A stretch of DNA of 64,000 nt from a virus (lineage: Duplodnaviria > Heunggongvirae > Uroviricota > Caudoviricetes), in IMG/VR virus record IMGVR_UViG_3300030616_000569, one strand, 5' to 3'. Positions within the stretch are counted from its first letter, which is position 1, and each line of letters opens with the position of its first letter. The notes under the pieces were generated by a model. The model was not told the origin of the DNA, made no database searches, and was given only the letters and a program-made list of their open reading frames with translations. Positions 18,502-36,136 of this stretch are shown in pieces. The translations under genes and the position numbers were made by a program.

Positions 18502-20096
18502 TAATAATGTCAATATATAATATAATGGAAGATAGCCATATCAAAAAAACAATAAGTTTATTTGTCGTGTACTTGATGGTAATTTCAGTAGCAGGTGTCG
18601 TGTTTTATTTTACGTCAGATACTATAGCAAAGGGTGCAACAACAAGTGATTTTGACCATTGGCAAGAGATAACTATATCATCAGCGAAAGTTGGAAAGAC
18701 ACTTCATGATTTTCCAGTTCTCGTGTTCAACAACTCGTGGGTGATTGGGCTTGTTAGCAATGATTTCACATTTTTTCAACCAGATAATTCAACAGAATGT
18801 AATTGGGAATTAGAGAGATATAACACATCAACTGGTCAATTAATTGCTTGGGTAAATATTACAAGTGTCAGTGCTGATACTGATACAGTATTTTATATCT
18901 ATTGGGATGATGATGGAGATGGTGGTGAAAACAACCCAACAAAGACATGGGATAAAAATTATGTAACTGTATTTCACATGGATGGTGAATCAACAACTGA
19001 AGATGATTCTTCTACATATGGAAGAGATGGAACGATAGATGATTCAAACGTAAATCGTTCAAATGGAAAAATTGGATACTCACAGGAAAATCAAAATGAT
19101 AATGGTTATATTGACATATATGATTCATATGGAATATTTGACGGTGCTGCTGATTTTACGATTGAGGCTTGGGTTTTAAACACAAATCTTGGTGAAACTG
19201 ATTGGTTTTTGAAGTTTGGTGGAGAATGTGATATTCATATAAAAGTTGATGGTGACGATAATAACGATGACATTTATCTAAGAAATCTTCAAGGAGCAGC
19301 TTGGGTAAATATTGTCTATGCAACATCTATAACAGCTGATACATGGTATCATACAGCAATTGCATATGATGGTGATACTGGTTATAATCTTTATCTCGAT
19401 GGTGTTGTTGATGCAACAAATGCAGAACATGGTGCAATAGATGGGAATAATGCAAATAATGTTATCATGAATGAAGATTCTGCTTCAAATGGATGGGACG
19501 GTCGTTTTGACGAATTTCGTATATCTGATATACAACGTAATTCTAGTTGGATAAATGCAATATATAATAACACAAATGATCCATCTACATTTTTGTCTTT
19601 TGGTGAAACAAAACGTGATACTTCTCCAAGTGTTACAATGACTGATATGTCTATGACAGTTGAAGGTCAACAGAGCGAAATTGTTTATGCTAACTCATCT
19701 GGTTCTGAATATCAAACTGGTGTTATGGCGATTGGTATATTAGGAACAAACTATCTCGAAAGAATAACAATAAATGTTTCTGATATTGATGATGGAAATA
19801 TAGATGGTGATGACATATATGTACAATTTGATAACGATAACGTAAGCTGGTCTTCTAATTGGCTTCAATGTTCAGATGGTGGTACTTCTATTATAATCAA
19901 TGGCACAGAATGGGACACAAATGCCTATATGAATGGTGCTAATCCATTTACTGCTGATAATGATGGTGATGGATATGATGAGATACAGACGAATGTTAGT
20001 ATCTATATGAAGGTAAAAATGGTCATACCTAGTGGCATAGTAAATACAACATATACGAACAATGCAATGACATGGGATTCAGGAAGATATTCATAG
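18498..20096 (+). CDS. membrane-anchored LamG/ConA-like domain protein
   Basis: N-terminal TM; motif GRFDEFRISDIQRNSSWINAIYNNT paralogous to the LamG motif of the 2121-aa protein; ATGA overlap. Confidence 0.6.
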   Translation: MIIMSIYNIMEDSHIKKTISLFVVYLMVISVAGVVFYFTSDTIAKGATTSDFDHWQEITISSAKVGKTLHDFPVLVFNNSWVIGLVSNDFTFFQPDNSTECNWELERYNTSTGQLIAWVNITSVSADTDTVFYIYWDDDGDGGENNPTKTWDKNYVTVFHMDGESTTEDDSSTYGRDGTIDDSNVNRSNGKIGYSQENQNDNGYIDIYDSYGIFDGAADFTIEAWVLNTNLGETDWFLKFGGECDIHIKVDGDDNNDDIYLRNLQGAAWVNIVYATSITADTWYHTAIAYDGDTGYNLYLDGVVDATNAEHGAIDGNNANNVIMNEDSASNGWDGRFDEFRISDIQRNSSWINAIYNNTNDPSTFLSFGETKRDTSPSVTMTDMSMTVEGQQSEIVYANSSGSEYQTGVMAIGILGTNYLERITINVSDIDDGNIDGDDIYVQFDNDNVSWSSNWLQCSDGGTSIIINGTEWDTNAYMNGANPFTADNDGDGYDEIQTNVSIYMKVKMVIPSGIVNTTYTNNAMTWDSGRYS

Positions 20097-21460
20097 GTGA
20101 TAATGTGAATAGAATCATTAGTATTATTGTGGCCATCTCTATTTTGCTTTCTTTGTTTGGATTTCATTTGATAGAAGAAGCAGAATCACAAGGGGTTTCA
20201 AATATTGTCTGGATATCAGCTGATTGGCATTGTGATATAGAAGATAAAGCAAATGCAAAAGGAATACATTGGCATTGTGATTGGGGTGATTATACAAATG
20301 GTAATACATGGGATGCAGTAAATGATACTAATGATATGAAAGTTGATTATGCTTGGATTGTAGGAGATTGTATTTCGTGGTTTGATGCTGCTGCTGGGTA
20401 TCCTGGTGTTCCAGAAGCTTGGCGTAGATTTGGTATTTATTGGAGTAATCTAACTATAAAATATGCAAAAAACTTTACTATTGGTAATCATGATGGTCGA
20501 TTTTTCGATGAAGATGATACTGACACACCATACGATCTAGGTCTTCCAAGATCACAGGGTACAGGTGGTGAATGGTATAATTTTACTATTGGTAATACTT
20601 CTAGTGGTGGTGTGAAATTCATTTGTATGGCTGATGAGGATACTGCTGATGGAAGTCAATCTGGAAATGGTGTTGTATCACAAGTTCAATATGATTGGGT
20701 AAATAGATCAATATGGGATGCTTATAATAACAGTCTCAATGTTTTCATATTTATGCACCAAAAACACTCTGGATGGTTCTCTGGAAGTGAATCTTCATCT
20801 ATTGTTACAGGAAAACCAATCAATACTATTCTCAATTACTGGAATAATCAACGGAAGCCTGTATCTTTATATTCATGTGGGCATTCACATGATACTGCAT
20901 TGAATAACAATGATTGGATTGAAGTGAATTATGGAACAAATTGTATGCTAGTTGGTAGTCTTGCATTTTATTCCAGTGATGGTGGTGCACACTACCCACA
21001 ATCACGTTATCTTTATTTCACTAATGAATCAACCAGTGTTACAATAAAGACATATAATCATACAGGTAATGTATTCAATGATGCAGTCGAGTACACATTT
21101 GATATGTTGTATCCATGGAATCCAGTATATAGAGCAGTTAATGCAACACCACCAGTTTATATGAATCTCAGTGACTTTTGTGGTTTTTCAAATGGATCAA
21201 ATATCAGTTCTAAATATACATATTGGGGTAATTTCAGTGATCCAGTACATCAGAATATAAATGTCAGTGGAATACATAATAATTCTCTTATACTTGATAT
21301 TGAAAGATACGAAATAGAAATTTCTTCAAACAAAGCATTCAGTGTATTAATAGCAAATGAAGTTATGACATCAAAATGGTTTAATCTTACAACTGATATA
21401 TCAAATCGTGGTAACATGTATGTTAGATATAGAGCATATGTAAAGGTGAGATCTCCTTGA
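20072..21460 (+). CDS. secreted calcineurin-like metallophosphoesterase (purple-acid-phosphatase-like)
   Basis: Signal anchor; motifs ISADWHCD, WIVGDCISW, TIGNHDGRF, FMHQKH, SCGHSHD match DxH..GD..GNH(D/E)..H..GHxH phosphoesterase signature. Confidence 0.6.
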   Translation: MGFRKIFIGDNVNRIISIIVAISILLSLFGFHLIEEAESQGVSNIVWISADWHCDIEDKANAKGIHWHCDWGDYTNGNTWDAVNDTNDMKVDYAWIVGDCISWFDAAAGYPGVPEAWRRFGIYWSNLTIKYAKNFTIGNHDGRFFDEDDTDTPYDLGLPRSQGTGGEWYNFTIGNTSSGGVKFICMADEDTADGSQSGNGVVSQVQYDWVNRSIWDAYNNSLNVFIFMHQKHSGWFSGSESSSIVTGKPINTILNYWNNQRKPVSLYSCGHSHDTALNNNDWIEVNYGTNCMLVGSLAFYSSDGGAHYPQSRYLYFTNESTSVTIKTYNHTGNVFNDAVEYTFDMLYPWNPVYRAVNATPPVYMNLSDFCGFSNGSNISSKYTYWGNFSDPVHQNINVSGIHNNSLILDIERYEIEISSNKAFSVLIANEVMTSKWFNLTTDISNRGNMYVRYRAYVKVRSP

Positions 21461-22170
21461 TTTATCGTTCCTCTAGTATATTTTTATTATTCATATTTAT
21501 TATCATAGCATCTGTCAATGTTTCTGGTGACTCTTATGAAACAACAAATAAGGGAACATGGGGAATAAGTGCTTCTGTCATTTCACCTGATGATTATTAT
21601 GATGTTGACTCAAGAGGAACGTGGGGAATAGAAGCTAATGTGATTGATGCACCACTACCGATAACATATAAAATAGATAGAAGTGGTGTATGGGGTATAT
21701 ATTTAAATGTGTTACCACCTCCATCATATAAAATAGATAGACGTGGGACATGGGGAATTACTGTATATACTGATTATTATGTTTGGTCTAATTATTCCAG
21801 TGTGTTTTGGATAACACACGATCAATCGATATCTTCGAGTGACAAAAAAGAATATCCACAAAATGATCCAGAACCAGTTGATGAAACAATTGATGATGAA
21901 ATATCAGATGTTGATAAAGGTGATAAACAACAAACTGCCATACCACAGCTATATTTTATTATTGGTATATGTTCAACTGTTGTTTTCATTGTTGTTATTA
22001 TGACAGGAAATGTTCCCTCAATTCCTTCAATAAAGGAATCAATTCACATACCAAAAAGACCAGAAGTGCAAAATATTCAAATAAATAGAACAACAAGTAA
22101 TAAGAATAATAAAAGTATAGAGATTGACAATAATGATAAGGATATTACTACTATAAATATTAAAAGGTGA
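21457..22170 (+). CDS. membrane protein with four (R/K)GTWGI repeats
   Basis: NKGTWGISASVI / SRGTWGIEANVI / RSGVWGIYLNVL / RRGTWGITVY at ~20-aa spacing; TM helix; Lys/Asn-rich tail. Confidence 0.5.
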   Translation: MIYRSSSIFLLFIFIIIASVNVSGDSYETTNKGTWGISASVISPDDYYDVDSRGTWGIEANVIDAPLPITYKIDRSGVWGIYLNVLPPPSYKIDRRGTWGITVYTDYYVWSNYSSVFWITHDQSISSSDKKEYPQNDPEPVDETIDDEISDVDKGDKQQTAIPQLYFIIGICSTVVFIVVIMTGNVPSIPSIKESIHIPKRPEVQNIQINRTTSNKNNKSIEIDNNDKDITTINIKR

Positions 22171-24164
22171 TAATAGTGGCTAAAAAGAAAAGAATAAGGA
22201 TTGTTGATACTGATATTGGCGACTCAAAAAAAGAAACACGAATTATAAGAGAAGATGTTGTTAAACATGTTAACAATGTTAAACCAACAGCGACATTCGT
22301 CATAGTAGTTGTTATCATCGTCCTTTTCTCAAACTTTGTATTTATTCCATATTTTATTGAAAATTATGTTGATGTCAGACAAAGTGATGTATTAACACTT
22401 GAGGATTTAGCTGGATATGCAACTCGTGGTGATCTAAATAATGTTACTAAAGTTGTTGCTGTTGCAAATACAAAGAGCTATCATACTGATATGAATTGGT
22501 CTAATATAACACATATGCCATCAGGATTTGCTGACGATTCTGATAATGGTACAGGTGGTAACACATTCGATCAGGATTTGAATACAACTGATACACCACT
22601 GTTTGACTATCTACAACTGACTTCAGGATCTCTCAATCAAGATAATTTGGCAGATAATACAACTGATCAACTTTCTGAAGGATCAACTAACAAATACACT
22701 ATGTGGAATCAATCAACTGCTTCTGACATTTGGTATGATGGGTCTGTCAATATAACAGGTGTTTTAAAGATAGAGAATGAAGATGCAAATCTAACACTTT
22801 ATGCATCTGATGGGTCAAGAAATCCTCATATTAATTTTTGGCGTGGTGATTGGAAATCTGACGCTTATGTTGATTATCAATTAGAGAATGATGGTGGTAA
22901 TTTCTATCTTAGGACACTTTATAATGGTGTTGAGTTGACGCCAATAACAGTTCAGTATAACAGTCATATTGGTCTCAATACAACATCACCAGGGTATGTT
23001 CTTGATGTAGATGGTAAGACAAGATTACAAGATAATGTTTTTGTCAATGGAACACTAAACTTGAATTACATAAAAGCGAGTGATGCAAATGGACTTATGA
23101 TAGGTGATGACAGTTATGATGGTTATTTGTTTTTCGAGAATGGTGGACAGATTGGTATTAATACAGACTCACCAACTATTGACTTGCATATTTATGAAAA
23201 TTCTGGTACAGCTGGATTAAGACTACAAAGTGATAATGGTAATGCATTTGATTATTACAAAGCAGGATATCATGGTAGCCAAGAGTGGCAGGTCGGTGTG
23301 CTCAATGCTTCTAATCACTATCAAATAAACACAAATTCACCATATATACAATGTATTGATATTGACAATGAAACTGGATATGTCGGAATTGGTGATGCAA
23401 CTCCTTCATATGATCTTGATGTAGTCGGTGATATTCGTTGTACTGATGATATGTTTGTTAACGATGATCTCGGTGTCGGTGGATCAATGAGTGTTGCTGG
23501 AGGATCAATTTCTATTTCTGCTGGTGCACCAATGCTGAAATATACTGAAACAGATGACGGAAATTACGCTCGACTTGGTGTAGATTCTGGTTTTCTTTTC
23601 TATGATTATGATGTTGATCAAGATGGTGGTTTTACACCATACTCTCGTCTTATAGTCCTTGATAAAAATACGACTTATTTCAATCAAAATATGAATGATA
23701 TAAATTTTAGAATATACACGAGAAATAACATTGAGGCATTCTATATAGATGGTGGAAATAGTCGTGTTGGTATCGGAACTAATACTCCTCGTGGTCTTCT
23801 TGATATTCAAACCAAAAATTCTGGTGCTGATATTAGTCAATATTTTGGATATCTTGATTATGGATTTTATTGGACATACAATGGTGCTGCTACAGGAAAC
23901 AAAAATGCACTTGAGTTGTGGACTGATGGTGCAGGTGGATTAGATGTACCTGTATTTGAAGTAGAACAAGATGGACAATTGTCTTTTAATCAAAGTGTTG
24001 GTATTGGAACCAACACTCCATCATACGAACTTGATGTCAATGGTGATATCAGGTGCACAGATGACCTCTATGTTGATGACCAGATGTTAATGTCAAATGG
24101 TGGAACAACATGGAAAATATATGTAAATGCATCAGGTATACTAACATGGGAGATGGAAATATGA
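22167..24164 (+). CDS. membrane-anchored fibre-like protein with tail-fibre-type VGIGTxxP repeats
   Basis: GTG start; TM near N-term; repeated IGINTDSPTIDLHI / VGIGDATPSYDLDVVGDIRCTDDMFV / VGIGTNTPRGLLDI / VGIGTNTPSYELDVNGDIRCTDDLYV, a motif typical of phage/virus tail-fibre and receptor-binding proteins. Confidence 0.55.
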   Translation: MIIVAKKKRIRIVDTDIGDSKKETRIIREDVVKHVNNVKPTATFVIVVVIIVLFSNFVFIPYFIENYVDVRQSDVLTLEDLAGYATRGDLNNVTKVVAVANTKSYHTDMNWSNITHMPSGFADDSDNGTGGNTFDQDLNTTDTPLFDYLQLTSGSLNQDNLADNTTDQLSEGSTNKYTMWNQSTASDIWYDGSVNITGVLKIENEDANLTLYASDGSRNPHINFWRGDWKSDAYVDYQLENDGGNFYLRTLYNGVELTPITVQYNSHIGLNTTSPGYVLDVDGKTRLQDNVFVNGTLNLNYIKASDANGLMIGDDSYDGYLFFENGGQIGINTDSPTIDLHIYENSGTAGLRLQSDNGNAFDYYKAGYHGSQEWQVGVLNASNHYQINTNSPYIQCIDIDNETGYVGIGDATPSYDLDVVGDIRCTDDMFVNDDLGVGGSMSVAGGSISISAGAPMLKYTETDDGNYARLGVDSGFLFYDYDVDQDGGFTPYSRLIVLDKNTTYFNQNMNDINFRIYTRNNIEAFYIDGGNSRVGIGTNTPRGLLDIQTKNSGADISQYFGYLDYGFYWTYNGAATGNKNALELWTDGAGGLDVPVFEVEQDGQLSFNQSVGIGTNTPSYELDVNGDIRCTDDLYVDDQMLMSNGGTTWKIYVNASGILTWEMEI

Positions 24165-26353
24165 AAATAAGTTATATCATAATGATATTGTTGTTTGTTC
24201 TTTTGTTACTATTTGTCAATAGTGCAAATGCTGGAACTGTCGAATATAGAGGACAACTTAATACATTTACTGCTATACGTTTTTATGATCATAGTGCTGG
24301 GACATATACAGAGAGAACTGCAAGTGGAACAAGTATTCAGTATTTTGAGACTGATGCTGTTACTGGTGATGCATTGATGTTCCAGTCTAACTCATATAGT
24401 GGAAAATATGGAAACATAACATTTGATGTTTTAACAGCAGTTGTTCCTGATGGTGCATACACATATCAATGGGAATATTGTGTTCGTGGAAGTTCTACTA
24501 CTGATGATGATTGGCTTCCTCTCCATGGTGTTGTTGATGAGACAAATGGATTCCAGAATGTTGGTAAAGGAAATGTAACATTTGAGATTCCAGAGGACTG
24601 GGAGAATTTCATTAATCCTAGCAATGTCTGTACTTGGTACTGTTGGAACATAAAAATAAATATAACATCATCAACTGGTTTTTCTGGTGGTGGTGGTGCA
24701 CAGGACGCAGTTTCAATAAAAAAAGTAGAAGAGGGGTTTTACTGTTCTGGATTTAGCAGTGCTGCACCATGCACAATGAATGATATCTATAACCAAGCTG
24801 TCATTGATGGAGTTGATGGTACTGTTATTACAAGATCTGGTAGTTATTATAACGTCAATTGCACAATACGTACATCATCAACAAGTGGTGATTTTGTGAC
24901 AAAAAATGAGACAATAGAATTCAATAAAGGTTGGGACTCATTCTTTTCTGATAAAGTTCAAATCGGGCAAATATCAACTGGATCAAAATGTATGTATGGT
25001 TCAACTCTTATATATCATATGAATGATTCAAATCTAAATGGATATATCTGTGGAGCAGATTCTGAGATATATGGTGCAAATATAATTCACATTGTTGATC
25101 CTGAAGCAAATTCTTGGAATGGTCATTGGGGTGGTACATTGGGAGACAAAACAGGACAAACGATATATCAGACGTTTATTTCTGATATTCGGCATTGTCA
25201 ATTTTCACTTGATGAAAATGCAATTATTGGTATTGACATTTTCAGTGCACATGTTGAACCACCTGGTGCTATTATTCAAGATGTAACATGTTATGATACA
25301 GCACAATGTTTTAGACCAAAAAACAATAATGATGATGATTTTGTTCACCAGTGTGATATGTCAGGAACGGTATCGAATTGCATTAACCCATGGCAAGTGC
25401 ACAGTGTTGCTCCACACTGGAAAATGGATTTTGTTGATTGTAATTGGGGTACTGTTGCGAAAGCAAATCGTGCATATTGGCAATACTCTTCATCTGTTGC
25501 TTATTATCAACCAAGGTTGTATGAAACATATTCTATGGAGCTTCGTCTAATTGATGAATTAAACAATAATTTATCTGGTGCCACTGTGACATTAGATGAT
25601 AATGATGGCAACCAAATATTTTCATACACTACAAATGAAAATGGTTTTGTAGGTGTAGATAATGGAACAATAACGCAACGGACATCTAGTACAATGATGG
25701 ATAGTTCTAAGTCATGGTCTACAAATCAATGGTGGTTTCATGAAGTTCTAATAACATCTGGTAGTTGCAAAGGTGCAAGAAGAATCATTCATAAAGGAAA
25801 TAATGGAACTGAAATCACGGTTGCACCAAATTGGGCAACTGTTCCACCACTCGGATCCAATTATGTCATTATTCCATATATAAGATGTGCAAATATGACA
25901 CCAAAAACAACCAAATCAACATGCACTTCAAATTATACATATCTTGGTCCATTTACAATGAATATAACAAAAACAAATTATGAGTCGTATACTTCAGTGT
26001 TTGATATGACTGAAGCATACAAAGGCATAATTGTATTAGAGAACAGAACGTGGGATTATGATGTTGATCCAATATGGCAAGTATTGAACACAACTGACAC
26101 AACTGTCTTAAAGCTCAAGGATAGTGGTGACCTTGCTATTGCTGGTGACTTATATGAGAATACAAATAGTCCTCCTCCTGGTGCAACAATAGTGTTCCAA
26201 ATGAATGATCGAATGTGGCTGGAAGACAGTGGTGATTTATATGTGCGTGGTTTTCAGTATGATAAAATGACTTTGATTAATGGCATAGCAACAATTGTTG
26301 GAGTATGTAGTGTTGTGTATTTGCGTTTGAAGAGAAGAAAAGAAGAAGTGTGA
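24161..26353 (+). CDS. secreted surface protein with C-terminal TM anchor + basic tail
   Basis: Track start 24110 overlaps upstream gene; ATG at 24161 gives signal peptide MKISYIIMILLFVLLLLFVNSANA with ATGA overlap; Cys-rich, sequon-rich; C-term IATIVGVCSVVYLRLKRRKEEV. Confidence 0.6.
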   Translation: MKISYIIMILLFVLLLLFVNSANAGTVEYRGQLNTFTAIRFYDHSAGTYTERTASGTSIQYFETDAVTGDALMFQSNSYSGKYGNITFDVLTAVVPDGAYTYQWEYCVRGSSTTDDDWLPLHGVVDETNGFQNVGKGNVTFEIPEDWENFINPSNVCTWYCWNIKINITSSTGFSGGGGAQDAVSIKKVEEGFYCSGFSSAAPCTMNDIYNQAVIDGVDGTVITRSGSYYNVNCTIRTSSTSGDFVTKNETIEFNKGWDSFFSDKVQIGQISTGSKCMYGSTLIYHMNDSNLNGYICGADSEIYGANIIHIVDPEANSWNGHWGGTLGDKTGQTIYQTFISDIRHCQFSLDENAIIGIDIFSAHVEPPGAIIQDVTCYDTAQCFRPKNNNDDDFVHQCDMSGTVSNCINPWQVHSVAPHWKMDFVDCNWGTVAKANRAYWQYSSSVAYYQPRLYETYSMELRLIDELNNNLSGATVTLDDNDGNQIFSYTTNENGFVGVDNGTITQRTSSTMMDSSKSWSTNQWWFHEVLITSGSCKGARRIIHKGNNGTEITVAPNWATVPPLGSNYVIIPYIRCANMTPKTTKSTCTSNYTYLGPFTMNITKTNYESYTSVFDMTEAYKGIIVLENRTWDYDVDPIWQVLNTTDTTVLKLKDSGDLAIAGDLYENTNSPPPGATIVFQMNDRMWLEDSGDLYVRGFQYDKMTLINGIATIVGVCSVVYLRLKRRKEEV

Positions 26354-26354
26354 T

Positions 26355-26903
26355 ATGATGTCATCAAATAGGGATAGGATTCTTGAAAACTTAGAGATGA
26401 CAAAACGTGGTATTCCTCTAAGCAAACGTGTTAAAGATACATATACAAAAGGTCTTCAACTTCAATGGTGCTATCAAAATCATTGGGATGAGATAAAGAA
26501 GATATTCAATGACTATAAGATAGATATGCGACATCAGTCACCGATTATCACGATACAGTCACTTAAAGAAGTAAAACTTGCTAGGGAGTTAACTGAAAAA
26601 TTGAAAGATGATCCAGAGATAAGAAAGTTGGCAATGTCTGTTTCATATCCTTTAAGAAATGTATATCCCTCTCCCAATATTTCAGAGAAAGATCTAATTG
26701 ATGGAACTATTTTTATAGTAATGCTTCGGTTGATACCTTACTATTGCTTAGAATTGGGTAAAAGTGCTTTAGAATCGTTTTTCGAAAATGGTAATAGATC
26801 TAAGTTTCTATCCGATTTATTTAATACCCATGGTACAATCATAGAAACACAAAATAGCTTTGAGTTAGCTGTCAAAAATATGTTGAAAGAAAACTCTAAA
26901 TAA
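26355..26903 (+). CDS. hypothetical cytoplasmic protein
   Basis: 182-aa ORF, no TM, no motif. Confidence 0.5.
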   Translation: MMSSNRDRILENLEMTKRGIPLSKRVKDTYTKGLQLQWCYQNHWDEIKKIFNDYKIDMRHQSPIITIQSLKEVKLARELTEKLKDDPEIRKLAMSVSYPLRNVYPSPNISEKDLIDGTIFIVMLRLIPYYCLELGKSALESFFENGNRSKFLSDLFNTHGTIIETQNSFELAVKNMLKENSK

Positions 26904-27049
26904 GTGTTAGTCAATATACATCAATATTGGATTCTCAAGGTAGCAGGAAGGAATCCACTGATGAGATTATTGAGTGATATACTTATGCAATATTTTTTTG
27001 AATATTATTATATAATGTCTATCTCATCAAAATAACAGAGGAATTTAGA

Positions 27050-28345
27050 ATGATGAAGAAATTAATTTTTTTGGTGTTTTTATTGATGTTAACACCTATG
27101 GTAGCAATGACGACATCTGCAACAACAATAGACATTGATTTTCTGCATGGATCAGCTGATGTTTGTCCAATAAATAATGCAACAATAAGTAACCACACAA
27201 CAACTGGTGATTTTACTGATATCACAGTGAACATATCTCAGGTTTCATATGGTACTCTAGTTGTTGTTTCATCAAATGATATATTACCAATATCATATTC
27301 GTTTGTGAATAACACAAAATACTACAACTATATTTTGACAAATGGAACAACAACTGAACAATTGAATATATCTGTAGATTATAGCTCAATAAAAGTTCCT
27401 CAATCACCAGAGGAGATGATGATAAATAATCTTACTATAGAAATAAAGAATCTCAAAGATGTGATAGATGAATTGAATAATACTATCATAACTCTTGAGC
27501 AAATCACCAATGAAAGTAATCTTACAGTAATATCCTTGAAATCAGAACTTGAAAATAAAACGAGTGATCTTGCTGACCTTCAGTTACAATACAGTGAATT
27601 GATTGTTACACATTCTGTATTAGAAAATGACTATGATATTTTAGATCAAGAGAATGATGTTTTAAAAAGTAATGTTTCTTCACTAGAACAATCAAATAGT
27701 GCATTAGCTGTTTTAGTGAGTTCACAAAGTGATGATATAGATGCACTAAATGATAAGATCGATGATTATAAATCGTTCGAAGATCAAGTTCTTAGTCCAT
27801 TCGTAATGGGATATGATAATGTTGATACTGGTGATGGACACATATTTTTTAATGTACCATCATTTGTTATTGGTGGAGGAATATTTTCTGCACTTGTTGT
27901 TATTATGATGAATTTTAATTCATTCAGTAGTGGAAAGACAATAAGAAGTGTTGGAAAAACAATTCATTTTCCATTTCTATCCAAGGGTGATAAATTAACA
28001 CCACAAGAGTGGGACATGATTGATGATAATGATCCTATGCCAAATGTAGAAAAGGAGTTTTTAGAATATAAGGGTCCAGCAAAGGATAGTGACAAAAACA
28101 TTAGTGATGCTACTGACACTAATAATATTGAAAAAAAGGATAACAATGTGAGTAGTGAAACAAATCATGAAGAGAGTTCAACCGATAAAAATTCTGAAGA
28201 ATCAGACAAAAAGAAATCAGAAATTGCTGATAATACCAAAGTTGTGAAGAAGAAACAGAAATTAAATCCAAGTCAAAAAGAGTATTGGAAAACACCGAAA
28301 GGAATGGCACATAGAAAAAGATTAAGTGAAATGGCAAAGGAATAG
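27050..28345 (+). CDS. secreted coiled-coil protein with TM segment and acidic/Lys-rich C-terminal tail
   Basis: Signal peptide; long heptad-like region (LTIEIKNLKDVIDELNNTIITLEQ...); hydrophobic segment FVIGGGIFSALVVIMM; KEKE-like tail. Confidence 0.55.
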   Translation: MMKKLIFLVFLLMLTPMVAMTTSATTIDIDFLHGSADVCPINNATISNHTTTGDFTDITVNISQVSYGTLVVVSSNDILPISYSFVNNTKYYNYILTNGTTTEQLNISVDYSSIKVPQSPEEMMINNLTIEIKNLKDVIDELNNTIITLEQITNESNLTVISLKSELENKTSDLADLQLQYSELIVTHSVLENDYDILDQENDVLKSNVSSLEQSNSALAVLVSSQSDDIDALNDKIDDYKSFEDQVLSPFVMGYDNVDTGDGHIFFNVPSFVIGGGIFSALVVIMMNFNSFSSGKTIRSVGKTIHFPFLSKGDKLTPQEWDMIDDNDPMPNVEKEFLEYKGPAKDSDKNISDATDTNNIEKKDNNVSSETNHEESSTDKNSEESDKKKSEIADNTKVVKKKQKLNPSQKEYWKTPKGMAHRKRLSEMAKE

Positions 28346-29051
28346 TGATACTGTGGAATTCAAGGTAGCATATTTGTATTACATAATGATTGCTGCTGCT
28401 GTTGGTTTTTTGTTTGTAGATGACAGTGTGATGGAAGTTCCTACAATGGCAACCGCCTGTGCTTTTTTTCTTATGTTGATAATATCAGCAGATCAATCTT
28501 GGAAGGCATTCAGAAGACAAGGTAGAGCAGCAATTATAAAAACACTAAAACCAGATGATGGTGGTCATTCTACAATTCATCCAGATGATATATCGATCGC
28601 TATGTCACCATCTGATGATACGTCTAAACTCCCGAATTTTGCAGTTTTTGCAACTGGTGGTTTTGTTCATGGTGGTGTAGAATGGCAAGGTGATGAAAAT
28701 TATTTTGTATGTCCACCAGAACATATTGAGCAAACTGGTTCAGCGTTGATATGTAGTACAAAATTTAGAAAGGTTGATTTTGATGACTTACAAGATTATA
28801 TCCAAGCTGAGTTATTGAAACTTAAATTCTTTTCTAAGAAGATGGTTTCACTTAAACATAATTTATGGTTTGGAATGACAAGTAAACTTGATGGTACATC
28901 AACAACGAATATGCTTACCGCTGAATCTGGATTTCTTGATCAGACTGCATTCATCAATCAACTTAAGAAATTAATACGTGATAAGAGTGATGCTACGACA
29001 CCAAGTGGAAAATCATCATCACCAATAACATTTAATATTCCGGAGAGATAA
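28326..29051 (+). CDS. membrane protein
   Basis: 241 aa; two N-terminal hydrophobic helices. Confidence 0.45.
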   Translation: MKWQRNSDTVEFKVAYLYYIMIAAAVGFLFVDDSVMEVPTMATACAFFLMLIISADQSWKAFRRQGRAAIIKTLKPDDGGHSTIHPDDISIAMSPSDDTSKLPNFAVFATGGFVHGGVEWQGDENYFVCPPEHIEQTGSALICSTKFRKVDFDDLQDYIQAELLKLKFFSKKMVSLKHNLWFGMTSKLDGTSTTNMLTAESGFLDQTAFINQLKKLIRDKSDATTPSGKSSSPITFNIPER

Positions 29052-29052
29052 T

Positions 29053-29247
29053 ATGGCATTAATATCGAAAGTATCTTATTGTAGATATTGCAGTGCAGAT
29101 GCTCACGATCTTAGAGTGATATATTCAAGCAAGTATACATCAAAATGCGGGTTCTGCGGAAAGATGTTATTTAGGATTCCAGCTGATAATCGCAAACCAT
29201 ATTACTATTTAAAGGAGATGCCAAAATATGAAAGAGGATTTAGGTAA
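29053..29247 (+). CDS. small Zn-ribbon protein
   Basis: CRYCSADAH...CGFCGKM (two CxxC pairs), 64 aa. Confidence 0.45.
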   Translation: MALISKVSYCRYCSADAHDLRVIYSSKYTSKCGFCGKMLFRIPADNRKPYYYLKEMPKYERGFR

Positions 29248-29764
29248 TCCACAAGAAGATATCCAATATATGATTGAGCCTCCTCGTGATCTTCATGAGT
29301 TGTATATGAGGTTGAGGGCACAACTTTCTTCCTCTAAATCATTTCATAGTTATTACATGAAGTTGATATCAATCGTAAAAGTCGGATCAAAACTCCTTCC
29401 AACAACAAAGGATTGCACTAGGATATCGAATGATATAAAAGAGTATCTATCTAGTCCAGAAGCTTATCCTGGAAAAAGACAGATGGAGAGAATAGGTGAT
29501 ATGTATCAGATGGGAAATGATTCTACTGGTCTGATCTGTGTTAATCAACATGATATTGAGATTGGTCTTAATGAAGCATTAGAGCAACAAATGACACATC
29601 TTCTTCCAAAACTAAATAGACTTGACAGTGATACAATGGACGCATTGATTGAGCATGGTATAATTGAAAAGAAAAGACCAATTCTTGAGGATCTTTTGAT
29701 TGATCAAACTATGAATGAATTAAGTTCAATGATACAGGCTAAGGCAAGTGAAAGGAATGAGTGA
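29228..29764 (+). CDS. hypothetical protein
   Basis: 178-aa ORF. Confidence 0.45.
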   Translation: MKEDLGNPQEDIQYMIEPPRDLHELYMRLRAQLSSSKSFHSYYMKLISIVKVGSKLLPTTKDCTRISNDIKEYLSSPEAYPGKRQMERIGDMYQMGNDSTGLICVNQHDIEIGLNEALEQQMTHLLPKLNRLDSDTMDALIEHGIIEKKRPILEDLLIDQTMNELSSMIQAKASERNE

Positions 29765-30161
29765 ATTACTAAAGGAAGAAGCAAAAGTAGGTGCAATGCT
29801 CAGATATATGACTGGTGATGTTGCATTATCTCTCAAACGTGATTTACAGAATTTATATGATAATTCAGATGTTGGGAAAATGTGCGCAAAGTGGCATTGG
29901 CTTTTGGTAAAATACTCTCCAGATCCTGTCATGGTAAGGAAATATATATCTATTATAGAATTTGCATATGAATATGGTATTTCTCTTGAAGACATGAAAT
30001 CATGGAAGAAAACTATGAGAATTGTGTTACCTGAAGAGTTTATGTACAAAATGGCCAAATTCACTCAAGTTCCACAGATTGCTGTTATGGATGACACACA
30101 CGCTGAATCAAGAGAGAATTTTATAAAAGAGTCACGTGACTCATCTGAGGTCGTATGGTAG
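29748..30161 (+). CDS. hypothetical protein
   Basis: 137-aa ORF overlapping neighbours. Confidence 0.45.
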   Translation: MKGMSELLKEEAKVGAMLRYMTGDVALSLKRDLQNLYDNSDVGKMCAKWHWLLVKYSPDPVMVRKYISIIEFAYEYGISLEDMKSWKKTMRIVLPEEFMYKMAKFTQVPQIAVMDDTHAESRENFIKESRDSSEVVW

Positions 30162-31138
30162 AATTTCCAAACTTTGAACGTGAACGTGTAGACAAAAATA
30201 TCCCATTAAAAAAGACACCATTCACTACGAAACTATTTCATGAAGGTTGTATTAGCACATTGTATGGATTGCCAGAAAGTGGAAAAACTAACTTTATGGT
30301 ATTTCTTTCACAGTGTGCAGCAATGAATAAATTTAACATATTCACTGTGATACACTTTTTTGATATGTCACAAGTTGAAGAAGCAATACAAGAAAAATTG
30401 CTTCCACCTGGAATAAAATACATACCTGTTCCAAAAAGAATACACACAGTAAAAAAAGTGAGTGAGCTTATACTAGGTGTTTTGGATGGTACTAACAATG
30501 CTACGATTCTTGATGAAGCTGGTCTATTTGCATCTACACGTGCTCCAATGTCAAAAAAACTGAGATATATATTGAATCTATCGTATATTATACGTCACTT
30601 GAGATCTTCATTTGTTTATGTAACTCAAACTAAAAGATCTATTCCACCAGAGATGCGTGAGTCTCTTGTGACATATGAGATGAACATAAAGAAAACAACT
30701 GAAGAAATTAGGACACTCGTTATAAAGAAGAGAAAGACTTACCATGACATGCACGGAAATGACTATATAGATTTTGTTCCTATAGATACTGTTCATAGAT
30801 TGCCACTGACAGTTCTTCCTTGGGATGGACATTATATTCCTAAATTTGAATTTGATATAGATTTAGATAAGACATGGAATATTCTTGGTGATTACAATTC
30901 TTTAGATGTACGAAAAGTTGGAAGAAAGGTTGTCCAAGAAATGATAGATTCAAGTAAAGAAGAGGATAATACTAAAGAATCAGCAGAAACAAGAAGAATA
31001 CGTGCTAGAAAAAGATTTGAAGAGATGTATGAAGACGAAGAATTTGAAACAAGAAGTGAAGCAGTTACAAAGCTTTCGAAGGAATTTAATAGATCATACC
31101 AATGGGCTTATCAGCTTACAAAGGACATGTTTCTGTGA
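30155..31138 (+). CDS. P-loop NTPase (Walker A/B; RecA/FtsK-HerA-like, candidate packaging or DNA-processing ATPase)
   Basis: Walker A LYGLPESGKTNFMV, Walker B ATILDEAGLF; acidic/basic C-terminal tail. Confidence 0.55.
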   Translation: MVEFPNFERERVDKNIPLKKTPFTTKLFHEGCISTLYGLPESGKTNFMVFLSQCAAMNKFNIFTVIHFFDMSQVEEAIQEKLLPPGIKYIPVPKRIHTVKKVSELILGVLDGTNNATILDEAGLFASTRAPMSKKLRYILNLSYIIRHLRSSFVYVTQTKRSIPPEMRESLVTYEMNIKKTTEEIRTLVIKKRKTYHDMHGNDYIDFVPIDTVHRLPLTVLPWDGHYIPKFEFDIDLDKTWNILGDYNSLDVRKVGRKVVQEMIDSSKEEDNTKESAETRRIRARKRFEEMYEDEEFETRSEAVTKLSKEFNRSYQWAYQLTKDMFL

Positions 31139-31222
31139 TTTATATTTATTTTTTTAAAATGCAATTAGAGGATAGTTGGTTCAAAGGTTTCAAATTTTTG
31201 AAATAATTATAGGAGTAACAGC

Positions 31223-31366
31223 ATGTATATAAAACGATGTGGGACTTGCAGATTTTTTTCCATTCCAATTAAAAATGAGAAGTATGGTTGGTGTCAAATA
31301 CATAAGATTCAACGTTCAAAATTTCAGAAGCATTGTAGTCATTATATTGTGAAGGTGATAAAATAA
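31223..31366 (+). CDS. small Zn-binding protein (not in ORF track, <60 aa)
   Basis: AGGAG SD 8 nt upstream; CGTC...C..HC..H pattern, 47 aa. Confidence 0.3.
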   Translation: MYIKRCGTCRFFSIPIKNEKYGWCQIHKIQRSKFQKHCSHYIVKVIK

Positions 31367-31571
31367 ATAAAGGAAATATACTAATATTCATTGGCGTTAT
31401 ATTGATGCTCATTGCAATATTCATTGGTGTTGATTGGTCATTACCTACTGATTCATTCAGTGGTGACTCATTATATTTCTTCATTAGTATTATTAATATT
31501 ATTATATCAGGTTTTGCAATTTTTCTCGGTGTAGTATCTGGTATATTGATACAAAAAGGTGTGCATGAAAA

Positions 31572-32435
31572 ATGAATGTCATATCATTTATATTCACCAT
31601 CTCATTATTTGTTATATTGTTTATACTTAGAAAACCAATTATTGAAATTTTGAGGAAGAATGATATTGGTCTAGTCATACTAGATCACAAAGAGAAGTTA
31701 GTTATTATCACATGTGTTTCTTTTATATTATTTATATTATCAACCATTGTTGTGTCAATACCAATAGGAACAACTGGTGTTGTTGTCAATGGGTTTGGCA
31801 TTGGATCTACTATTGATCATGGCATACATGTGAAGAATATATTCGACGATGTGGATATTGTCCCTTGGTATAGTCAAACGATAGATATGAACATTCTAGT
31901 AAACTCAAATGATTCCATTCCAGTTAATATACGAGCTAATGTTGTATATAGAATAGAAAGAGGGAATATAGGAGAAACAAGGATAAAATATCCAAATTAC
32001 GAGAATATCATTGAGCAGAGCACAAGGAGTATTTCTAATGCATATGCATCTGAATATGACTCTCTTGAGTTGACTGGTGAAATGAAGATTGATTTTATAA
32101 ATAAGACAAAGAGTGATTTATCGGATCTATTATCTACAATGCATATAAATTTGGAGATATTGAATATAGAATCTATAAGTCTCCCAGATTCATATCAGAA
32201 TGCAATAATATCAGAGAAGTCCGCACAGAAGGAACGTGAGGCAATTGTATCAAAGGCATTGGCTGATGCTGAATCAATTGGTATAATTGACGAAAAATTA
32301 TCGAGTGTTTCTGAGTCATTTCTAAAGTGGTATTACATAAGTGCAATCATAGATGAAGATTCGAATGTTAATTGGATTTTACCATTTGGTAATTTTAATT
32401 TTGATTTAGGTGAAGATGTTAGAATCACGGAATAA
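31572..32435 (+). CDS. SPFH/band-7 (stomatin/prohibitin-like) membrane protein
   Basis: Two N-terminal TM helices; SPFH-like core (VYRIERGNIGETRIKY...ILNIESISLPDSYQNAIISEKSAQKEREAIVSKALADAESIG). Confidence 0.55.
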   Translation: MNVISFIFTISLFVILFILRKPIIEILRKNDIGLVILDHKEKLVIITCVSFILFILSTIVVSIPIGTTGVVVNGFGIGSTIDHGIHVKNIFDDVDIVPWYSQTIDMNILVNSNDSIPVNIRANVVYRIERGNIGETRIKYPNYENIIEQSTRSISNAYASEYDSLELTGEMKIDFINKTKSDLSDLLSTMHINLEILNIESISLPDSYQNAIISEKSAQKEREAIVSKALADAESIGIIDEKLSSVSESFLKWYYISAIIDEDSNVNWILPFGNFNFDLGEDVRITE

Positions 32436-32871
32436 AGATGGATTAGTATTCGGTGTTGTTGATATGACTGTCACACTGTTGGGTGTGATTATTGGGTTAT
32501 CTTTCTCATGTGATTATAATATTATTATAACTGCTGTTATTGTTACTGGTGTTGCTGATTCATTTGCAAATGCATCAGGTATCTTTGCAATTTCTAATGT
32601 AGATGACAAAAAAACAAATTATACATCTTCAATCTATTGTTTTATATCAACATTTCTGACAATGATTATTATATTGTTTCCTTTTTTTATCTATGATGTT
32701 TCACAGGCGATATATATTTCATCATTCATTTCAATAATTCTCCTTGTCATCCTTGGTTATTATGTCATGCCAAAAGATTATAAGTATAATTATTTGGTGC
32801 CTTTGAGATTTGTTGTCATTGCGTTAATAGTTTCTGCAATATCTTATGTGATTGGTTTTGTCTTTTTATAA
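32410..32871 (+). CDS. polytopic membrane protein
   Basis: 153 aa, 4-5 hydrophobic helices. Confidence 0.45.
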   Translation: MKMLESRNKDGLVFGVVDMTVTLLGVIIGLSFSCDYNIIITAVIVTGVADSFANASGIFAISNVDDKKTNYTSSIYCFISTFLTMIIILFPFFIYDVSQAIYISSFISIILLVILGYYVMPKDYKYNYLVPLRFVVIALIVSAISYVIGFVFL

Positions 32872-33003
32872 AAACAAAAAATTTAAGTACCAATATAAGA
32901 TACTTTTATATAAGTACACAAATCCACACAAAATCCATTGAAAATAGGATATGTTAGTATCAGATTCCATTAATTCTTGGTCGTGGCTCTTTGTGTACAT
33001 AAT

Positions 33004-33078
33004 AAAGAGTTGTTTTAGCTTGGTCTATTCTCCTGGACCCATAATCCAGGGACAGAGGTTCAAATCCTCTACTCTTTA
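33004..33078 (+). tRNA. degenerate tRNA-like element / possible tRNA pseudogene or att-site remnant
   Basis: Perfect 7-bp acceptor (AAAGAGT/ACTCTTT), canonical T-arm AGAGG-TTCAAAT-CCTCT, anticodon-like stem CCTGG/CCAGG, but 9-nt loop and extra nt between acceptor and D-stem. Confidence 0.3.
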
Positions 33079-33084
33079 TAAATC

Positions 33085-33216
33085 ATGATGGATTATTGTT
33101 TTAAATGTAATATGTATACAGAGTGTTTTTATATTACATTACCTGATGGTGATTATCCATATTGTAAACATTGTATAGATAGATACTCAAAGAAATGTTT
33201 TGAGTGTTTTCATTAA
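33085..33216 (+). CDS. small Zn-ribbon protein (not in ORF track)
   Basis: MMDYCFKCNMYTECF...CKHC...CFECFH, 43 aa. Confidence 0.3.
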   Translation: MMDYCFKCNMYTECFYITLPDGDYPYCKHCIDRYSKKCFECFH

Positions 33217-33290
33217 TTTTAAACAAAAACTTTAAATACTAACTTTTATATACTAAAGTTTACTTTAATAAAGTAAAGTAGGAATTAACA

Positions 33291-34475
33291 ATGAAAGAAT
33301 TAGGTGAATTTATAGACAAGATAGGAAATGAGTATGAACTTGGTGATCCATGGAAGTTCTCTAAGAAATCTATTGGTGTTATTGTTCCAATTATAACCAA
33401 AAATCAATTACGACGTGATTATATAACATATCCAGAAGTGAAAGATGATGTTAATGTTATCGATTCTGGAAGTATTGATAAATTGAAGATAGATGGTATA
33501 GACAAAAGTGTGTTTATAAAAGGTGGTACAATTTTTTCAGGTGTTGGTACACAGAGTAGAAGTATTGAACACTCGATTGTTTTAGATCCAAACTCTAAAA
33601 TTGATATAGATGTAAAATGTGTTCATGCTTCACATGGAATTCATCATGGATCAAGATTTGAATATAAAGGTGTTTCACCAAGAGTTGTTAGGTCAGCACT
33701 CAGTAACCCTAACTCTTATGGGAAACAGTCTAGTGTATGGAATAGTGTGAGTTCATATAATCTGTGTTCTAGAAATATGACTGGTCATGTTGGTAATAGA
33801 GTAGAAAGTGAAATAAGAAATGATGATCTTGTTGGTGTTCGTAATGCATCAAAGAGATTGGGATCAAAAATTGAAGATATATTAAATGAGGTTCCTGTAT
33901 TTGAGAATCAAATTGGTGCAATTATAATAGGATCAAATGGAATTGAAGGAATCGAAATGTTTGATCATCAGGATTCATGGAAGGCACAATATAAAGATGT
34001 GATTGAGTCCTATGATGATGTTTTCAATGATGAACAAAGTCTCTTTTCGATTGATGAGACAAAGATAAATGATTTTATTATTGGGTTTATTAATAAGATA
34101 AAGAAATCAGATTCTACAAATGTTGGAAATAATTGTTTTGTGATCAAATTCAAAGGGTATATTGGTGAGTATGTTATTCACAATAACCGTATAATTCATC
34201 TGTTTGTTATGAAGTATGATGAACCAACAAAAAATGATCAACAGTCTCTTCAATATCAATCATTTGGTCATCGTCCATCTGGACTCGATCATATTGTTGG
34301 ATCACTTAACAATGGTCCAAAAACATGGAGTGAATTATTTGAGTCGTCTAAAGTTAGCACATCTACACTTTCTTCTCGGTTGAAAGAACTTGAGAAAAAT
34401 GGTTTTGTAAAAAGAACACTAAGAAAAAATGGGTCAAAAACAAAGAATGTTTATAAATTGAATGATATAAAATAG
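33291..34475 (+). CDS. protein with C-terminal winged-helix HTH (putative transcription regulator)
   Basis: C-terminal GPKTWSELFESSKVSTSTLSSRLKELEKNGFVKR typical wHTH; N-terminal 300 aa unknown. Confidence 0.5.
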   Translation: MKELGEFIDKIGNEYELGDPWKFSKKSIGVIVPIITKNQLRRDYITYPEVKDDVNVIDSGSIDKLKIDGIDKSVFIKGGTIFSGVGTQSRSIEHSIVLDPNSKIDIDVKCVHASHGIHHGSRFEYKGVSPRVVRSALSNPNSYGKQSSVWNSVSSYNLCSRNMTGHVGNRVESEIRNDDLVGVRNASKRLGSKIEDILNEVPVFENQIGAIIIGSNGIEGIEMFDHQDSWKAQYKDVIESYDDVFNDEQSLFSIDETKINDFIIGFINKIKKSDSTNVGNNCFVIKFKGYIGEYVIHNNRIIHLFVMKYDEPTKNDQQSLQYQSFGHRPSGLDHIVGSLNNGPKTWSELFESSKVSTSTLSSRLKELEKNGFVKRTLRKNGSKTKNVYKLNDIK

Positions 34476-34644
34476 TAAAATTTAAATACTAATATGACAT
34501 ACTATATACGATGTTATATGGGCGGACTTTGTTCGCCTCCATTGCATCCCCTAATGTGATTACTATGACACTATCGTGTTTATCAAGTTTGCTCAGTTCC
34601 TGAGCATGCATTTGCCTTTAGTGTCACCTCTTTTTTGTCTTATT

Positions 34645-34779
34645 ACCGATGTGCCTGAGTGGATTATGGACCAGACTTAAATTTTTTGACTATTATCGAT
34701 TTAAGGGTTAAACTCAAAATCCATTGATGAGATATCTGGGTGGGCAGCCACAACGTCGGTTCGAATCCGACCATCGGTA
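34645..34779 (+). tRNA. tRNA-Leu(TAA) with 52-nt archaeal-type intron (34682-34733) at 37/38
   Basis: Acceptor ACCGATG/CATCGGT; anticodon stem CCAGA/TCTGG with loop CT-TAA-A|intron|A; 15-nt extra arm; T-arm GTCGG-TTCGAAT-CCGAC; no encoded CCA. Confidence 0.6.
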
Positions 34780-34782
34780 TTT

Positions 34783-34867
34783 GCCAGTGTAGTCAAGTGG
34801 ACGATGACGGTATGTTTAGAACTTACTTTCCGAAGGGAACGCACAGGTTCGAATCCTGTCGCTGGCA
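34783..34867 (+). tRNA. tRNA-Leu(TAG)
   Basis: Acceptor GCCAGTG/CGCTGGC, D-stem GTCA/TGAC, loop TT-TAG-AA, long extra arm, T-arm ACAGG-TTCGAAT-CCTGT. Confidence 0.7.
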
Positions 34868-34871
34868 CTAT

Positions 34872-34956
34872 GTCCATATGTCGGAGTGGTTTAACGAACT
34901 TGGTTGCTAACCAAGTTGATGGAGACATCACTCAGGTTCGAATCCTGATATGGACG
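34872..34956 (+). tRNA. tRNA-Ser(GCT)
   Basis: Acceptor GTCCATA/TATGGAC, anticodon stem CTTGG/CCAAG loop TT-GCT-AA, 16-nt extra arm, T-arm TCAGG-TTCGAAT-CCTGA. Confidence 0.75.
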
Positions 34957-34962
34957 TCATTT

Positions 34963-35343: not shown

Positions 35344-35348
35344 GTAAG

Positions 35349-35702: not shown

Positions 35703-35706
35703 TTCT

Positions 35707-35837: not shown

Positions 35838-35847
35838 CTATGTAACT

Positions 35848-36132: not shown

Positions 36133-36136
36133 CTTT

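Follow-up and report, generated by a model that had tools for sequence, protein, structure and literature searches.

The Pleolipoviridae are tiny, vesicle-like archaeal viruses with genomes of 7–17 kb (PMC7547991), and they carry an ATPase known as VP8 in HRPV-1 and ORF33 in His2. The pI protein of the inovirus pI/Zot family (PF05707) has been placed in the FtsK-HerA superfamily by Roux et al. (PMC6813254). The haloarchaeal tailed viruses HVTV-1, HCTV-1/-5 and HGTV-1 possess genomes of at least 100 kb, in which PolB and an RFC-like clamp loader are clustered. Here, we describe an element that shares features with each of these systems. It was found in a 64,000-nucleotide stretch of DNA (hereafter called “the window”), which is part of the ENA contig ERZ27252234 k141_2182633, read in reverse. 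The entire contig of 98,148 bp was rebuilt by exact-protein look-ups, and window position 1 corresponds to contig position 31403. A version of 92.7 kb is present in JGI 3300028920. The contig probably belongs to a virus-like element, large (>98 kb), AT-rich and strand-polarised, whose host is an uncultivated archaeon, and not to the host chromosome. Two parts of the window are central to the argument: a protein with fibre-type repeats (22167–24164), and a conserved module of seven genes (26355–31138) that ends in a P-loop ATPase (30155–31138).

How does the element compare with the described systems? The pleolipoviruses are matched in three respects. The window ATPase is a detectable homologue of VP8/ORF33; its C-terminus is helical and helix-turn-helix (HTH)-like, and its more distant relatives align with His2 ORF33 through the C-terminal HTH region of that protein; and it closes a co-directional block that opens with a signal-peptide, transmembrane (TM)-anchored protein and includes a two-TM protein. 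In contrast, the element exceeds 98 kb, contains nothing detectably homologous to VP3, the VP4 spike, ORF6 or ORF7, and encodes its own PolB/RFC module, 25 tRNAs and a glycan cluster. Its GC content is 33%, and its samples appear to be of a non-haloarchaeal type, as judged from contig name prefixes that are unverifiable. With the haloarchaeal tailed viruses, the element shares the clustered PolB and RFC-like clamp loader (30–38% identity), the genome size range, and a large tRNA complement, which is known in related large archaeal viruses. Unlike them, it has no recognised head-tail genes in 98 kb, contains a module of membrane proteins with a VP8-type ATPase, and has a very different GC content.

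The element also resembles the Borgs—the giant linear elements of Methanoperedens—in its GC content of about 33%, long one-strand coding, mostly hypothetical proteins, and many surface and glycosylation genes. A Borg identity was rejected, since pervasive perfect tandem repeats are missing: Tandem Repeats Finder detected 13 short, imperfect arrays in 64 kb. The archaeal virus or mobile element, the fibre repeat and the pleolipovirus-type ATPase are all kinds already known. Their combination—a genome above 98 kb, a private core of seven genes, a full set of tRNAs with introns among them, a fibre anchored in the membrane, and absence from IMG/VR and GTDB—fits no described family that we found in the literature.

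The terminal ATPase and its seven-gene module

The ATPase consists of 327 amino acids (aa) and is encoded on the + strand at 30155–31138. Its Walker A motif, GLPESGKT (aa 38–45; 30266–30289), and its Walker B motif, ATILDE (aa 116–121; 30500–30517), are invariant or nearly so among 12 homologues. The AlphaFold2 (AF2) model, with a predicted local distance difference test score (pLDDT) of 85.6, comprises an ASCE P-loop core, a beta-hairpin domain (aa 172–214) with the PWDGHYIPKFEFD motif at its end, and, at the C-terminus, a helical domain of HTH-like type. The protein contains no hydrophobic segment, and no TM helix follows the ATPase domain.

Next, we investigated which family this ATPase belongs to. 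In a HMMER scan of 1.84 billion representatives, the ATPase family proved to be small, with 46 clusters at E<1e-30, and was followed by a tail of 370–450-aa proteins. The window ATPase matches phrog_1979, a PHROG of unknown function (E 3.3e-8), and all 31 of the distant 370–450-aa relatives tested match it as well, while nine of them also match “Zot-like toxin”. For the comparison with the pleolipoviruses, five of their genomes were fetched, and the alignments were compared profile to profile (hhalign). The ATPase family matched the five pleolipovirus ATPases at 98.1% (E 7.4e-14, 178 columns), and the A1 alignment matched His2 ORF33 at 95% (E 3.7e-8). The ATPase family matched the phrog_1979-type set (A2) at 100% (E 3.9e-41), and A2 matched His2 ORF33 at 98.6% (E 6e-16), with the C-terminal HTH included. 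The family also matched M13 pI at 89% (E 2e-6), and Inoviridae Zot was the top match of the ATPase in a Foldseek search of the viral models in BFVD (E 6.7e-9). In contrast to the inovirus proteins, the window ATPase stays below the gathering cut-off of Pfam Zot (PF05707; 18.0 bits versus 20.3), lacks the C-terminal TM helix, and lies in a context that is not inovirus-like. The controls were not significant: STIV B164 reached 3%, SSV1 B251 13%, and the contig’s own RFC-like and AAA proteins 38% and 6%, respectively. Neither the window ATPase nor its distant relative P0070 had a tblastn match among 50,697 records of phages and archaeal viruses, and the comparison of the ATPase with the PDB sequences (phmmer or profile) gave nothing significant.

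These profile–profile results place the ATPase, at the level of sequence, as a divergent member of the pleolipovirus VP8/ORF33 lineage that is related to pI/Zot. The original prediction was that 30155–31138 encodes a Walker A/B ATPase of the RecA/FtsK-HerA kind used for genome packaging. The Walker motifs and the ASCE core bear out the first half of this description. Its use for genome packaging is not supported, as we found no specific similarity to the capsid genome-packaging ATPases (A32/FtsK-HerA type, such as STIV B164/B204 and PRD1 P9), and the protein is thus not demonstrably a capsid-packaging enzyme on the comparisons made here.

A far more distant ATPase relative (29–32% identity) is encoded on L026 (Ga0190360_1001108), a 14.2-kb, mixed-strand contig with a GC content of 51%, and its tetranucleotide composition is unrelated to that of the window (r 0.006). 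L026 could bridge both groups, as a small element of a pleolipovirus-like or plasmid kind.

The ATPase gene is the last of seven genes on the + strand that form a conserved module (26355–31138). The first gene (p182; 26355–26903) has no known domain and shares 33–72% identity with its counterparts in L005, L007, L010 and L020, which are among the public contigs with homologues. The second (p431; 27050–28345) encodes a protein with a signal peptide, a sequon-rich ectodomain, a long coiled coil, a TM helix (aa 265–292), and a charged C-terminal tail. The third (p241; 28386–29051, 221 aa in the public gene call) encodes two N-terminal TM helices followed by a highly conserved soluble domain with the motifs GGHSTIHP and VCPPEH. 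The fourth (p64; 29053–29247) encodes a small CxxC...CxxC zinc-ribbon protein. The fifth product (p178; 29228–29764) is soluble and conserved, with no known domain. The sixth (p137; 29748–30161) is soluble as well; the 3′ end of its gene overlaps the ATPase start, and it is second only to the ATPase in its breadth of conservation among the module genes (14 loci).

The order of the module genes is also conserved. A giant variable protein is followed by proteins of 160–200 aa, 390–490 aa (signal peptide, coiled coil and TM helix), 230–250 aa (two TM helices), about 70 aa (zinc ribbon), 170–200 aa and 130–145 aa, and finally by the ATPase. All or most of this order is found in L005, L007, L010, L013, L016, L020, L021, L023 and L025, and the synteny extends over about 10 divergent metagenomic elements with identities of 24–76%. 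In the eight related loci with measured composition, the GC content is 33–37%, and the coding is nearly all on one strand, except in L021 (10 of 15 open reading frames (ORFs)). Relatives of the ATPase and p241 are absent from the 185,579 GTDB species genomes. The six non-ATPase genes, with p241 among the phmmer or profile queries, show no resemblance to the PDB sequences. A “pleolipovirus-like core block” was tested gene by gene, and only the ATPase holds.

The fibre-like protein and its neighbours

The 665-aa protein encoded at 22167–24164 on the + strand (22176–24164 and 662 aa in the public gene call) has a basic N-terminus and a single TM helix, and its long external region contains five repeats of the fibre type. 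The hydrophobic anchor spans aa 35–67 (22269–22367; Kyte-Doolittle window >1.6) and is consistent with the type II membrane topology that we predict for this protein. The repeat region (22968–24086) contains five VGIGT-TP-LDV copies, starting at 22968, 23151, 23382, 23766 and 23997, and two of these, the third and the fifth, belong to longer 30-aa units with 21 of 30 positions identical. The pattern [IV]G[ILV][GN][TD]x[TS]P(x3-4)[LI][DH][IV] is absent from the remainder of the 98-kb contig, translated in all six frames, and none of 20,000 shuffles of the protein reproduced the motif.

Which proteins share this repeat? Close homologues are essentially lacking in a collection of 5.8 billion proteins, Pfam yields no match for the protein, including none to Peptidase_S74 (PF13884), and the PDB sequences (phmmer or profile) gave nothing significant. 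PHROGs, in contrast to Pfam, returned phrog_9942 “tail fiber protein” for aa 268–471 (E 5.6e-13), together with several further motif-only matches. A 1364-aa protein present in two IMG/VR viral genomes (119 and 158 kb) shares 28% identity over aa 262–624, and has a near-identical stretch in common with the window protein, GFVGILDSTPSYTLDVNGDIRCTDDMFVNDDL, GxVGIxDxTPSYxLDVxGDIRCTDDMFVNDDL. These two matches and the shared stretch indicate that the motif is genuinely common to this predicted fibre and viral fibre proteins, and the fibre-type repeats of the original prediction are borne out by them and by the shuffling.

The protein aligns with P0163, P0164, P0166 and an L035 protein, and the first three of these, which are weak matches, bear the repeat unit VGIxDxTPSYxLDVxGxIRxTxD immediately before a Peptidase_S74 domain. 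In the alignment, the window protein stops 25 aa past its last repeat, where the SDxRLKxN...IAQE segment of its relatives begins. It thus has the repeat unit and the PHROG match of the S74 tail fibres and spikes, but differs from them in lacking the S74 domain and in possessing the N-terminal TM anchor. The basic N-terminus and the hydrophobic helix point to a membrane-anchored fibre, and not to a classical tail fibre. The earlier proposal of a viral fibre protein is thereby narrowed, with the viral repeat retained and the tail-fibre architecture abandoned.

The fibre gene is the penultimate gene of an uninterrupted run of secreted or anchored proteins (7471–26353). Up to the fibre gene, the run (7471–22170, + strand) encodes proteins of 1348, 198, 2121 (five LamG domains), 532 (LamG), 462 and 237 aa. 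The gene for the 2121-aa LamG protein contains a 51-nucleotide (nt) tandem repeat (2.7 copies, 77% match) at 17628–17765, which is the only sizeable one in the window. The last gene of the run (24161–26353, + strand) encodes a 730-aa type I membrane protein with a signal peptide, a C-terminal TM anchor and a short basic tail. This slot is variable, as the related elements hold unrelated giant proteins of 900–2100 aa there, and the 730-aa protein has no significant match among the PDB sequences (phmmer or profile).

The contig as a whole and the nature of the element

Through analyses of the entire contig, we found that it is one entity, and that the 22–31 kb region is no island inside something else. 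The GC content is 33.0%, the GC skew is positive in 49 of 49 2-kb bins, and 104 of 112 ORFs (≥80 aa) are encoded on the + strand, in agreement with the uniform coding noted at the outset. The tetranucleotide correlation between each 6-kb bin and the rest is 0.93–0.97 over the 84 kb tested, and the 22–31 kb region is not compositionally distinct from the remainder; the GC or tetranucleotide break that had been suggested as a check was not seen. The contig has no terminal repeats. No ribosomal-protein, RNA polymerase, aminoacyl-tRNA synthetase or other central-metabolism or housekeeping family was found for any contig gene by Pfam, including the precomputed matches, and the Rfam scan of the contig found tRNAs only, with no rRNA or other family. 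A co-linear block of ribosomal and core genes, which would have spoken for a chromosome, is thus absent from the 98 kb.

The contig starts with a replication module, in which PolB is followed by an ERCC4 nuclease, an HD protein, the RFC-like clamp loader, a Cas4-like nuclease and an AAA protein. Beyond it, unknown proteins precede a CBM96 protein, a zinc phospholipase C and an Rce1-like protease; then come small ORFs and PKD/TSP3 surface proteins, at least 14 paralogues sharing a leader, and the giant LamG proteins with the fibre protein. The remainder consists of the ATPase module, the tRNA block, an integrase-like gene, and a nonulosonic-acid/glycosyltransferase cluster of about 20 kb.

The element carries its own tRNA set: ARAGORN (introns allowed) detects 25 tRNAs at 33003–41207, which cover all 20 amino acids with one tRNA for each codon box, confirming the array that had been noticed before. 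In four of them, a short intron of archaeal type adjoins the anticodon (at or near position 37/38), with a length of 52 nt in Leu-TAA, 56 nt in Glu-TTC, 53 nt in CAT and 16 nt in Gln-TTG. The CAT intron forms the canonical helix-bulge(3)-helix(4)-bulge(3)-helix fold, Glu and Gln form relaxed variants, and the Leu fold is unclear. Introns of the bulge-helix-bulge type require the archaeal/eukaryal splicing endonuclease. Considering also the prokaryotic gene organisation, the host is most likely an archaeon. The tRNA set matches the codon usage, in which 78% of the third positions are A/T. The CAT tRNA would act as tRNA-Ile2, consistent with ATA being the commonest Ile codon.

We propose that the element is most likely a large, unclassified archaeal virus or virus-like element. 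Several observations weigh against this proposal. Pfam and PHROGs, including precomputed Pfam matches, reveal no capsid, portal or terminase on the 98 kb, and no known envelope-fusion protein was recognised anywhere on the contig. The genome is incomplete, since the contig end cuts the PolB ORF. PolB, RFC and ERCC4 also occur as cellular archaeal genes. IMG/VR contains no relative of the ATPase or of p241, so the lineage has no independent viral call. The six non-ATPase module genes and the 730-aa protein match pleolipovirus VP3, VP4, ORF6 and ORF7 with probabilities all below 5% (profiles from five pleolipoviruses). The AF2 model of the fibre protein, built from a five-sequence alignment, reached a pLDDT of 31 and gave no usable structure. 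Finally, no role has been established for the VP8-type ATPase even among the pleolipoviruses (PMC7547991), and the HTH-bearing ATPase might just as well initiate replication or act in partition. The suggestion that the window belongs to a large archaeal virus or integrated element therefore stands in part: the evidence from the whole contig favours a non-chromosomal element of uniform composition, with its own PolB/RFC module and tRNAs, while the virion hallmarks sought elsewhere on the contig were not recognised. In the absence of a recognised capsid, portal or terminase, we infer, rather than observe, that it is a virus and not a plasmid-like element.

Could the element be a large, virion-less plasmid-like extrachromosomal element? 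Its surface and glycan genes would then remodel the host envelope or mediate cell–cell contact, and the ATPase-HTH protein would serve in replication initiation, partition or DNA transfer. The missing capsid, portal and terminase, the long stretches of surface and glycan genes, and the conserved integrase-like gene are compatible with this, as are several properties of the ATPase: its helical, HTH-like C-terminal domain, the matches of 8 of the 31 distant relatives to the PHROG “DnaA-like replication initiation protein”, and the IstB-like ATPases among its weak PDB sequence matches. However, the specific relatives of the ATPase are virion-associated or virus-core ATPases, and not SSV1 B251 (13%), and its gene follows membrane-protein genes within a block of fixed order, with about 57 kb separating it from the replication module. 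Moreover, no conjugation genes (VirB4, TraG or relaxase) are on record, and a full complement of tRNAs is typical of large viruses and, to our knowledge, rare in plasmids. We consider a plasmid-like element rather unlikely.

A tailed archaeal virus (Caudoviricetes), with its head-tail module beyond the contig ends and a genuine tail or side fibre at 22167–24164, has little probability. The PolB and RFC-like proteins do have their best viral matches in haloarchaeal tailed viruses of 102–144 kb (30–38% identity), the fibre protein matches phrog_9942 and a protein of large IMG/VR genomes, and the contig is incomplete. Large archaeal tailed viruses can also hold near-complete tRNA sets, such as the 29 tRNAs for 19 amino acids of DNTV-1 (10.1101/2025.02.15.638363). 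Nevertheless, the family searches and precomputed Pfam matches reveal no HK97-fold capsid, portal, large terminase, tail tube or baseplate gene in the 98 kb, which is truncated inside PolB and in which most proteins have no recognisable homologue. TM anchors or signal peptides, which tail components do not usually have, are present in the fibre protein and most of its neighbours, and IMG/VR, which is rich in tailed viruses, contains no relative of the module. We know of no tailed virus with a VP8-type ATPase block as one of its features.

A hypervariable surface/glycosylation island in the chromosome of an unbinned small archaeon (for example, DPANN), with the fibre as an adhesin and the module cellular or domesticated, has equally little probability: giant LamG, PKD and TSP3 surface proteins and the nonulosonic-acid/glycosyltransferase cluster dominate the window, poor assembly or binning of such islands could account for the GTDB absence, and PolB, RFC and ERCC4 are cellular genes too, but the 98 kb holds no ribosomal, rRNA, aminoacyl-tRNA synthetase, RNA polymerase or central-metabolism gene, coding is almost entirely on one strand with a positive GC skew throughout, the replication genes are clustered, and the module is conserved across otherwise highly variable elements. 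Moreover, we know of no archaeal cell for which as few as 25 tRNAs, with a single one for each codon box, would suffice.

Neighbouring genes and a possible mechanism

Downstream of the ATPase, a variable block (31139–41207, + strand) is inserted, which comprises Band7/SPFH, VIT1-like and ARPP-1 plus winged-HTH genes as well as the tRNA array with its mini-ORFs. In eight related loci, the small conserved gene p87 lies about 0.1–0.8 kb past the ATPase, while in the window it is found at 41208–41471 (+ strand), with about 10 kb inserted between the two. L013 carries tRNAs too, but downstream of p87. Several of the mini-ORFs interleaved with the tRNAs bear CxxC motifs, and the tRNAs have neither a common upstream promoter motif nor obvious individual promoters. 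One 56-aa ORF inside the array, the putative mini release factor (36545–36715), has eRF1_2 and acVLRF1 Pfam matches on record. Just 5′ of the ARPP-1/winged-HTH gene (33291), the TATA-box-like unit AAAGTTTATATACT occurs in about 3.4 copies (33227–33279) and may be a regulatory site. A 184-aa tyrosine-recombinase-like protein (43100–43654, + strand; PHROG integrase E 5e-9) is conserved in L005, L019 and L020, and the contig also contains HNH genes and related genes. Both the mini release factor and the recombinase-like gene had been picked out in the original prediction. PHROG and Pfam searches with 12 genes that lie upstream of the window, and with 56 proteins from the neighbourhoods in the related loci, yielded only mobile-element genes (resolvase, integrase, TnpB, LAGLIDADG and DUF5131).

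The glycan cluster of about 20 kb starts at window position 43710 and runs past 64000 to the contig end (L037). It encodes NeuB, two CMP-sugar cytidylyltransferases, UDP-GlcNAc 2-epimerase, a DegT aminotransferase, an SDR epimerase and a sulfotransferase, in addition to methyltransferases, HAD, MptE-like proteins, a C5-epimerase and GT1. Several of these enzymes are far below the Pfam model size, as exemplified by NeuB (230 aa), the epimerase (261 aa) and DegT (211 aa). The UDP-glucose dehydrogenase is apparently split into two pieces, at 43710 and 63096. In L005, the two ends that flank the dehydrogenase adjoin, and the nonulosonic-acid genes therefore look like a second insertion.

Upstream of the window, the replication and repair cluster occupies L042 1–7354 (window about −31400 to −24050) and encodes PolB, ERCC4, HD, the RFC-like protein (314 aa), the Cas4-like PD-(D/E)XK nuclease, the AAA protein (266 aa) and a 442-aa protein of unknown function. 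It is followed at L042 9742–14196 (window about −21660 to −17200) by the 780-aa CBM96 protein, the zinc-dependent phospholipase C (329 aa) and the Rce1-like CPBP intramembrane protease. Membrane-active enzymes of the phospholipase C and CPBP types would fit entry or egress across a lipid membrane. The tandem paralogues, at least 14 in number, share an N-terminal leader of about 20 aa, GW(H/Y)xExxRHSLAxRGI, whereas their C-terminal domains are unrelated. They lie at window 1738–7172 and extend upstream to window −4337 (L004 3926–8897). The C-terminus of one of them (4649–5260) is RNA 2′-phosphotransferase-like, according to a weak PHROG match, and that of another is DUF5661. The leader was not seen in the fetched parts of the related loci. 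It has the look of a shared signal by which a set of effector proteins would be targeted, packaged or processed, and the family thereby offers a candidate targeting signal. In a secreted 524-aa protein (window 3009–4583), a C10/C39-like cysteine peptidase domain is joined to repeats of the thrombospondin type-3 and MopE-like kinds, and a TM anchor is present at the C-terminus; a 268-aa Cys-rich protein with a cohesin domain is encoded nearby (window 923–1729).

How might these parts work together? Surface: The 7.5–26.4 kb region encodes a battery of secreted or anchored, fast-evolving surface proteins, with the fibre-like protein among them. These proteins may decorate a lipid envelope, or the membrane of the infected cell, and mediate attachment.

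Core: The 26355–31138 module is the conserved core, composed of two membrane proteins, the zinc ribbon, three small soluble proteins, and the ATPase with its C-terminal DNA-binding-like domain. By analogy with the block of membrane proteins and ATPase in the pleolipoviruses, and with pI/Zot of the filamentous phages, this core probably functions at a membrane. ATP hydrolysis could then be coupled to the loading of DNA into a membrane-bound particle, or to the assembly or release of such a particle. The virion, its envelope and the function of the ATPase are what we infer from this arrangement.

The element may thus belong to a previously unrecognised lineage of very large membrane-enveloped archaeal viruses, a possibility that we raise tentatively and regard as short of probable. 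Such viruses would exceed 98 kb and possess their own PolB/clamp-loader replisome, a complete tRNA set with introns spliced by the host, glycan genes, variable envelope fibres or adhesins, and a morphogenesis core that has only the ATPase in common with the tiny pleolipoviruses. If so, the lineage would be the “giant” counterpart of the vesicle-like archaeal viruses, missed by virus-detection pipelines and binning. It would amount to a large family of archaeal viruses or virus-like elements in saline and anoxic metagenomes—environments read from unverifiable contig name prefixes—that is invisible to IMG/VR-type detection and to the binning of metagenome-assembled genomes, and of which at least about 10 divergent lineages have been seen. 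Virus-encoded complete tRNA sets would then extend to intron-bearing, host-spliced tRNAs. Moreover, six of the seven core genes have no known relatives and the seventh is tied to the pleolipovirus ATPase, so the family would provide a much larger comparative set for the function of this ATPase.

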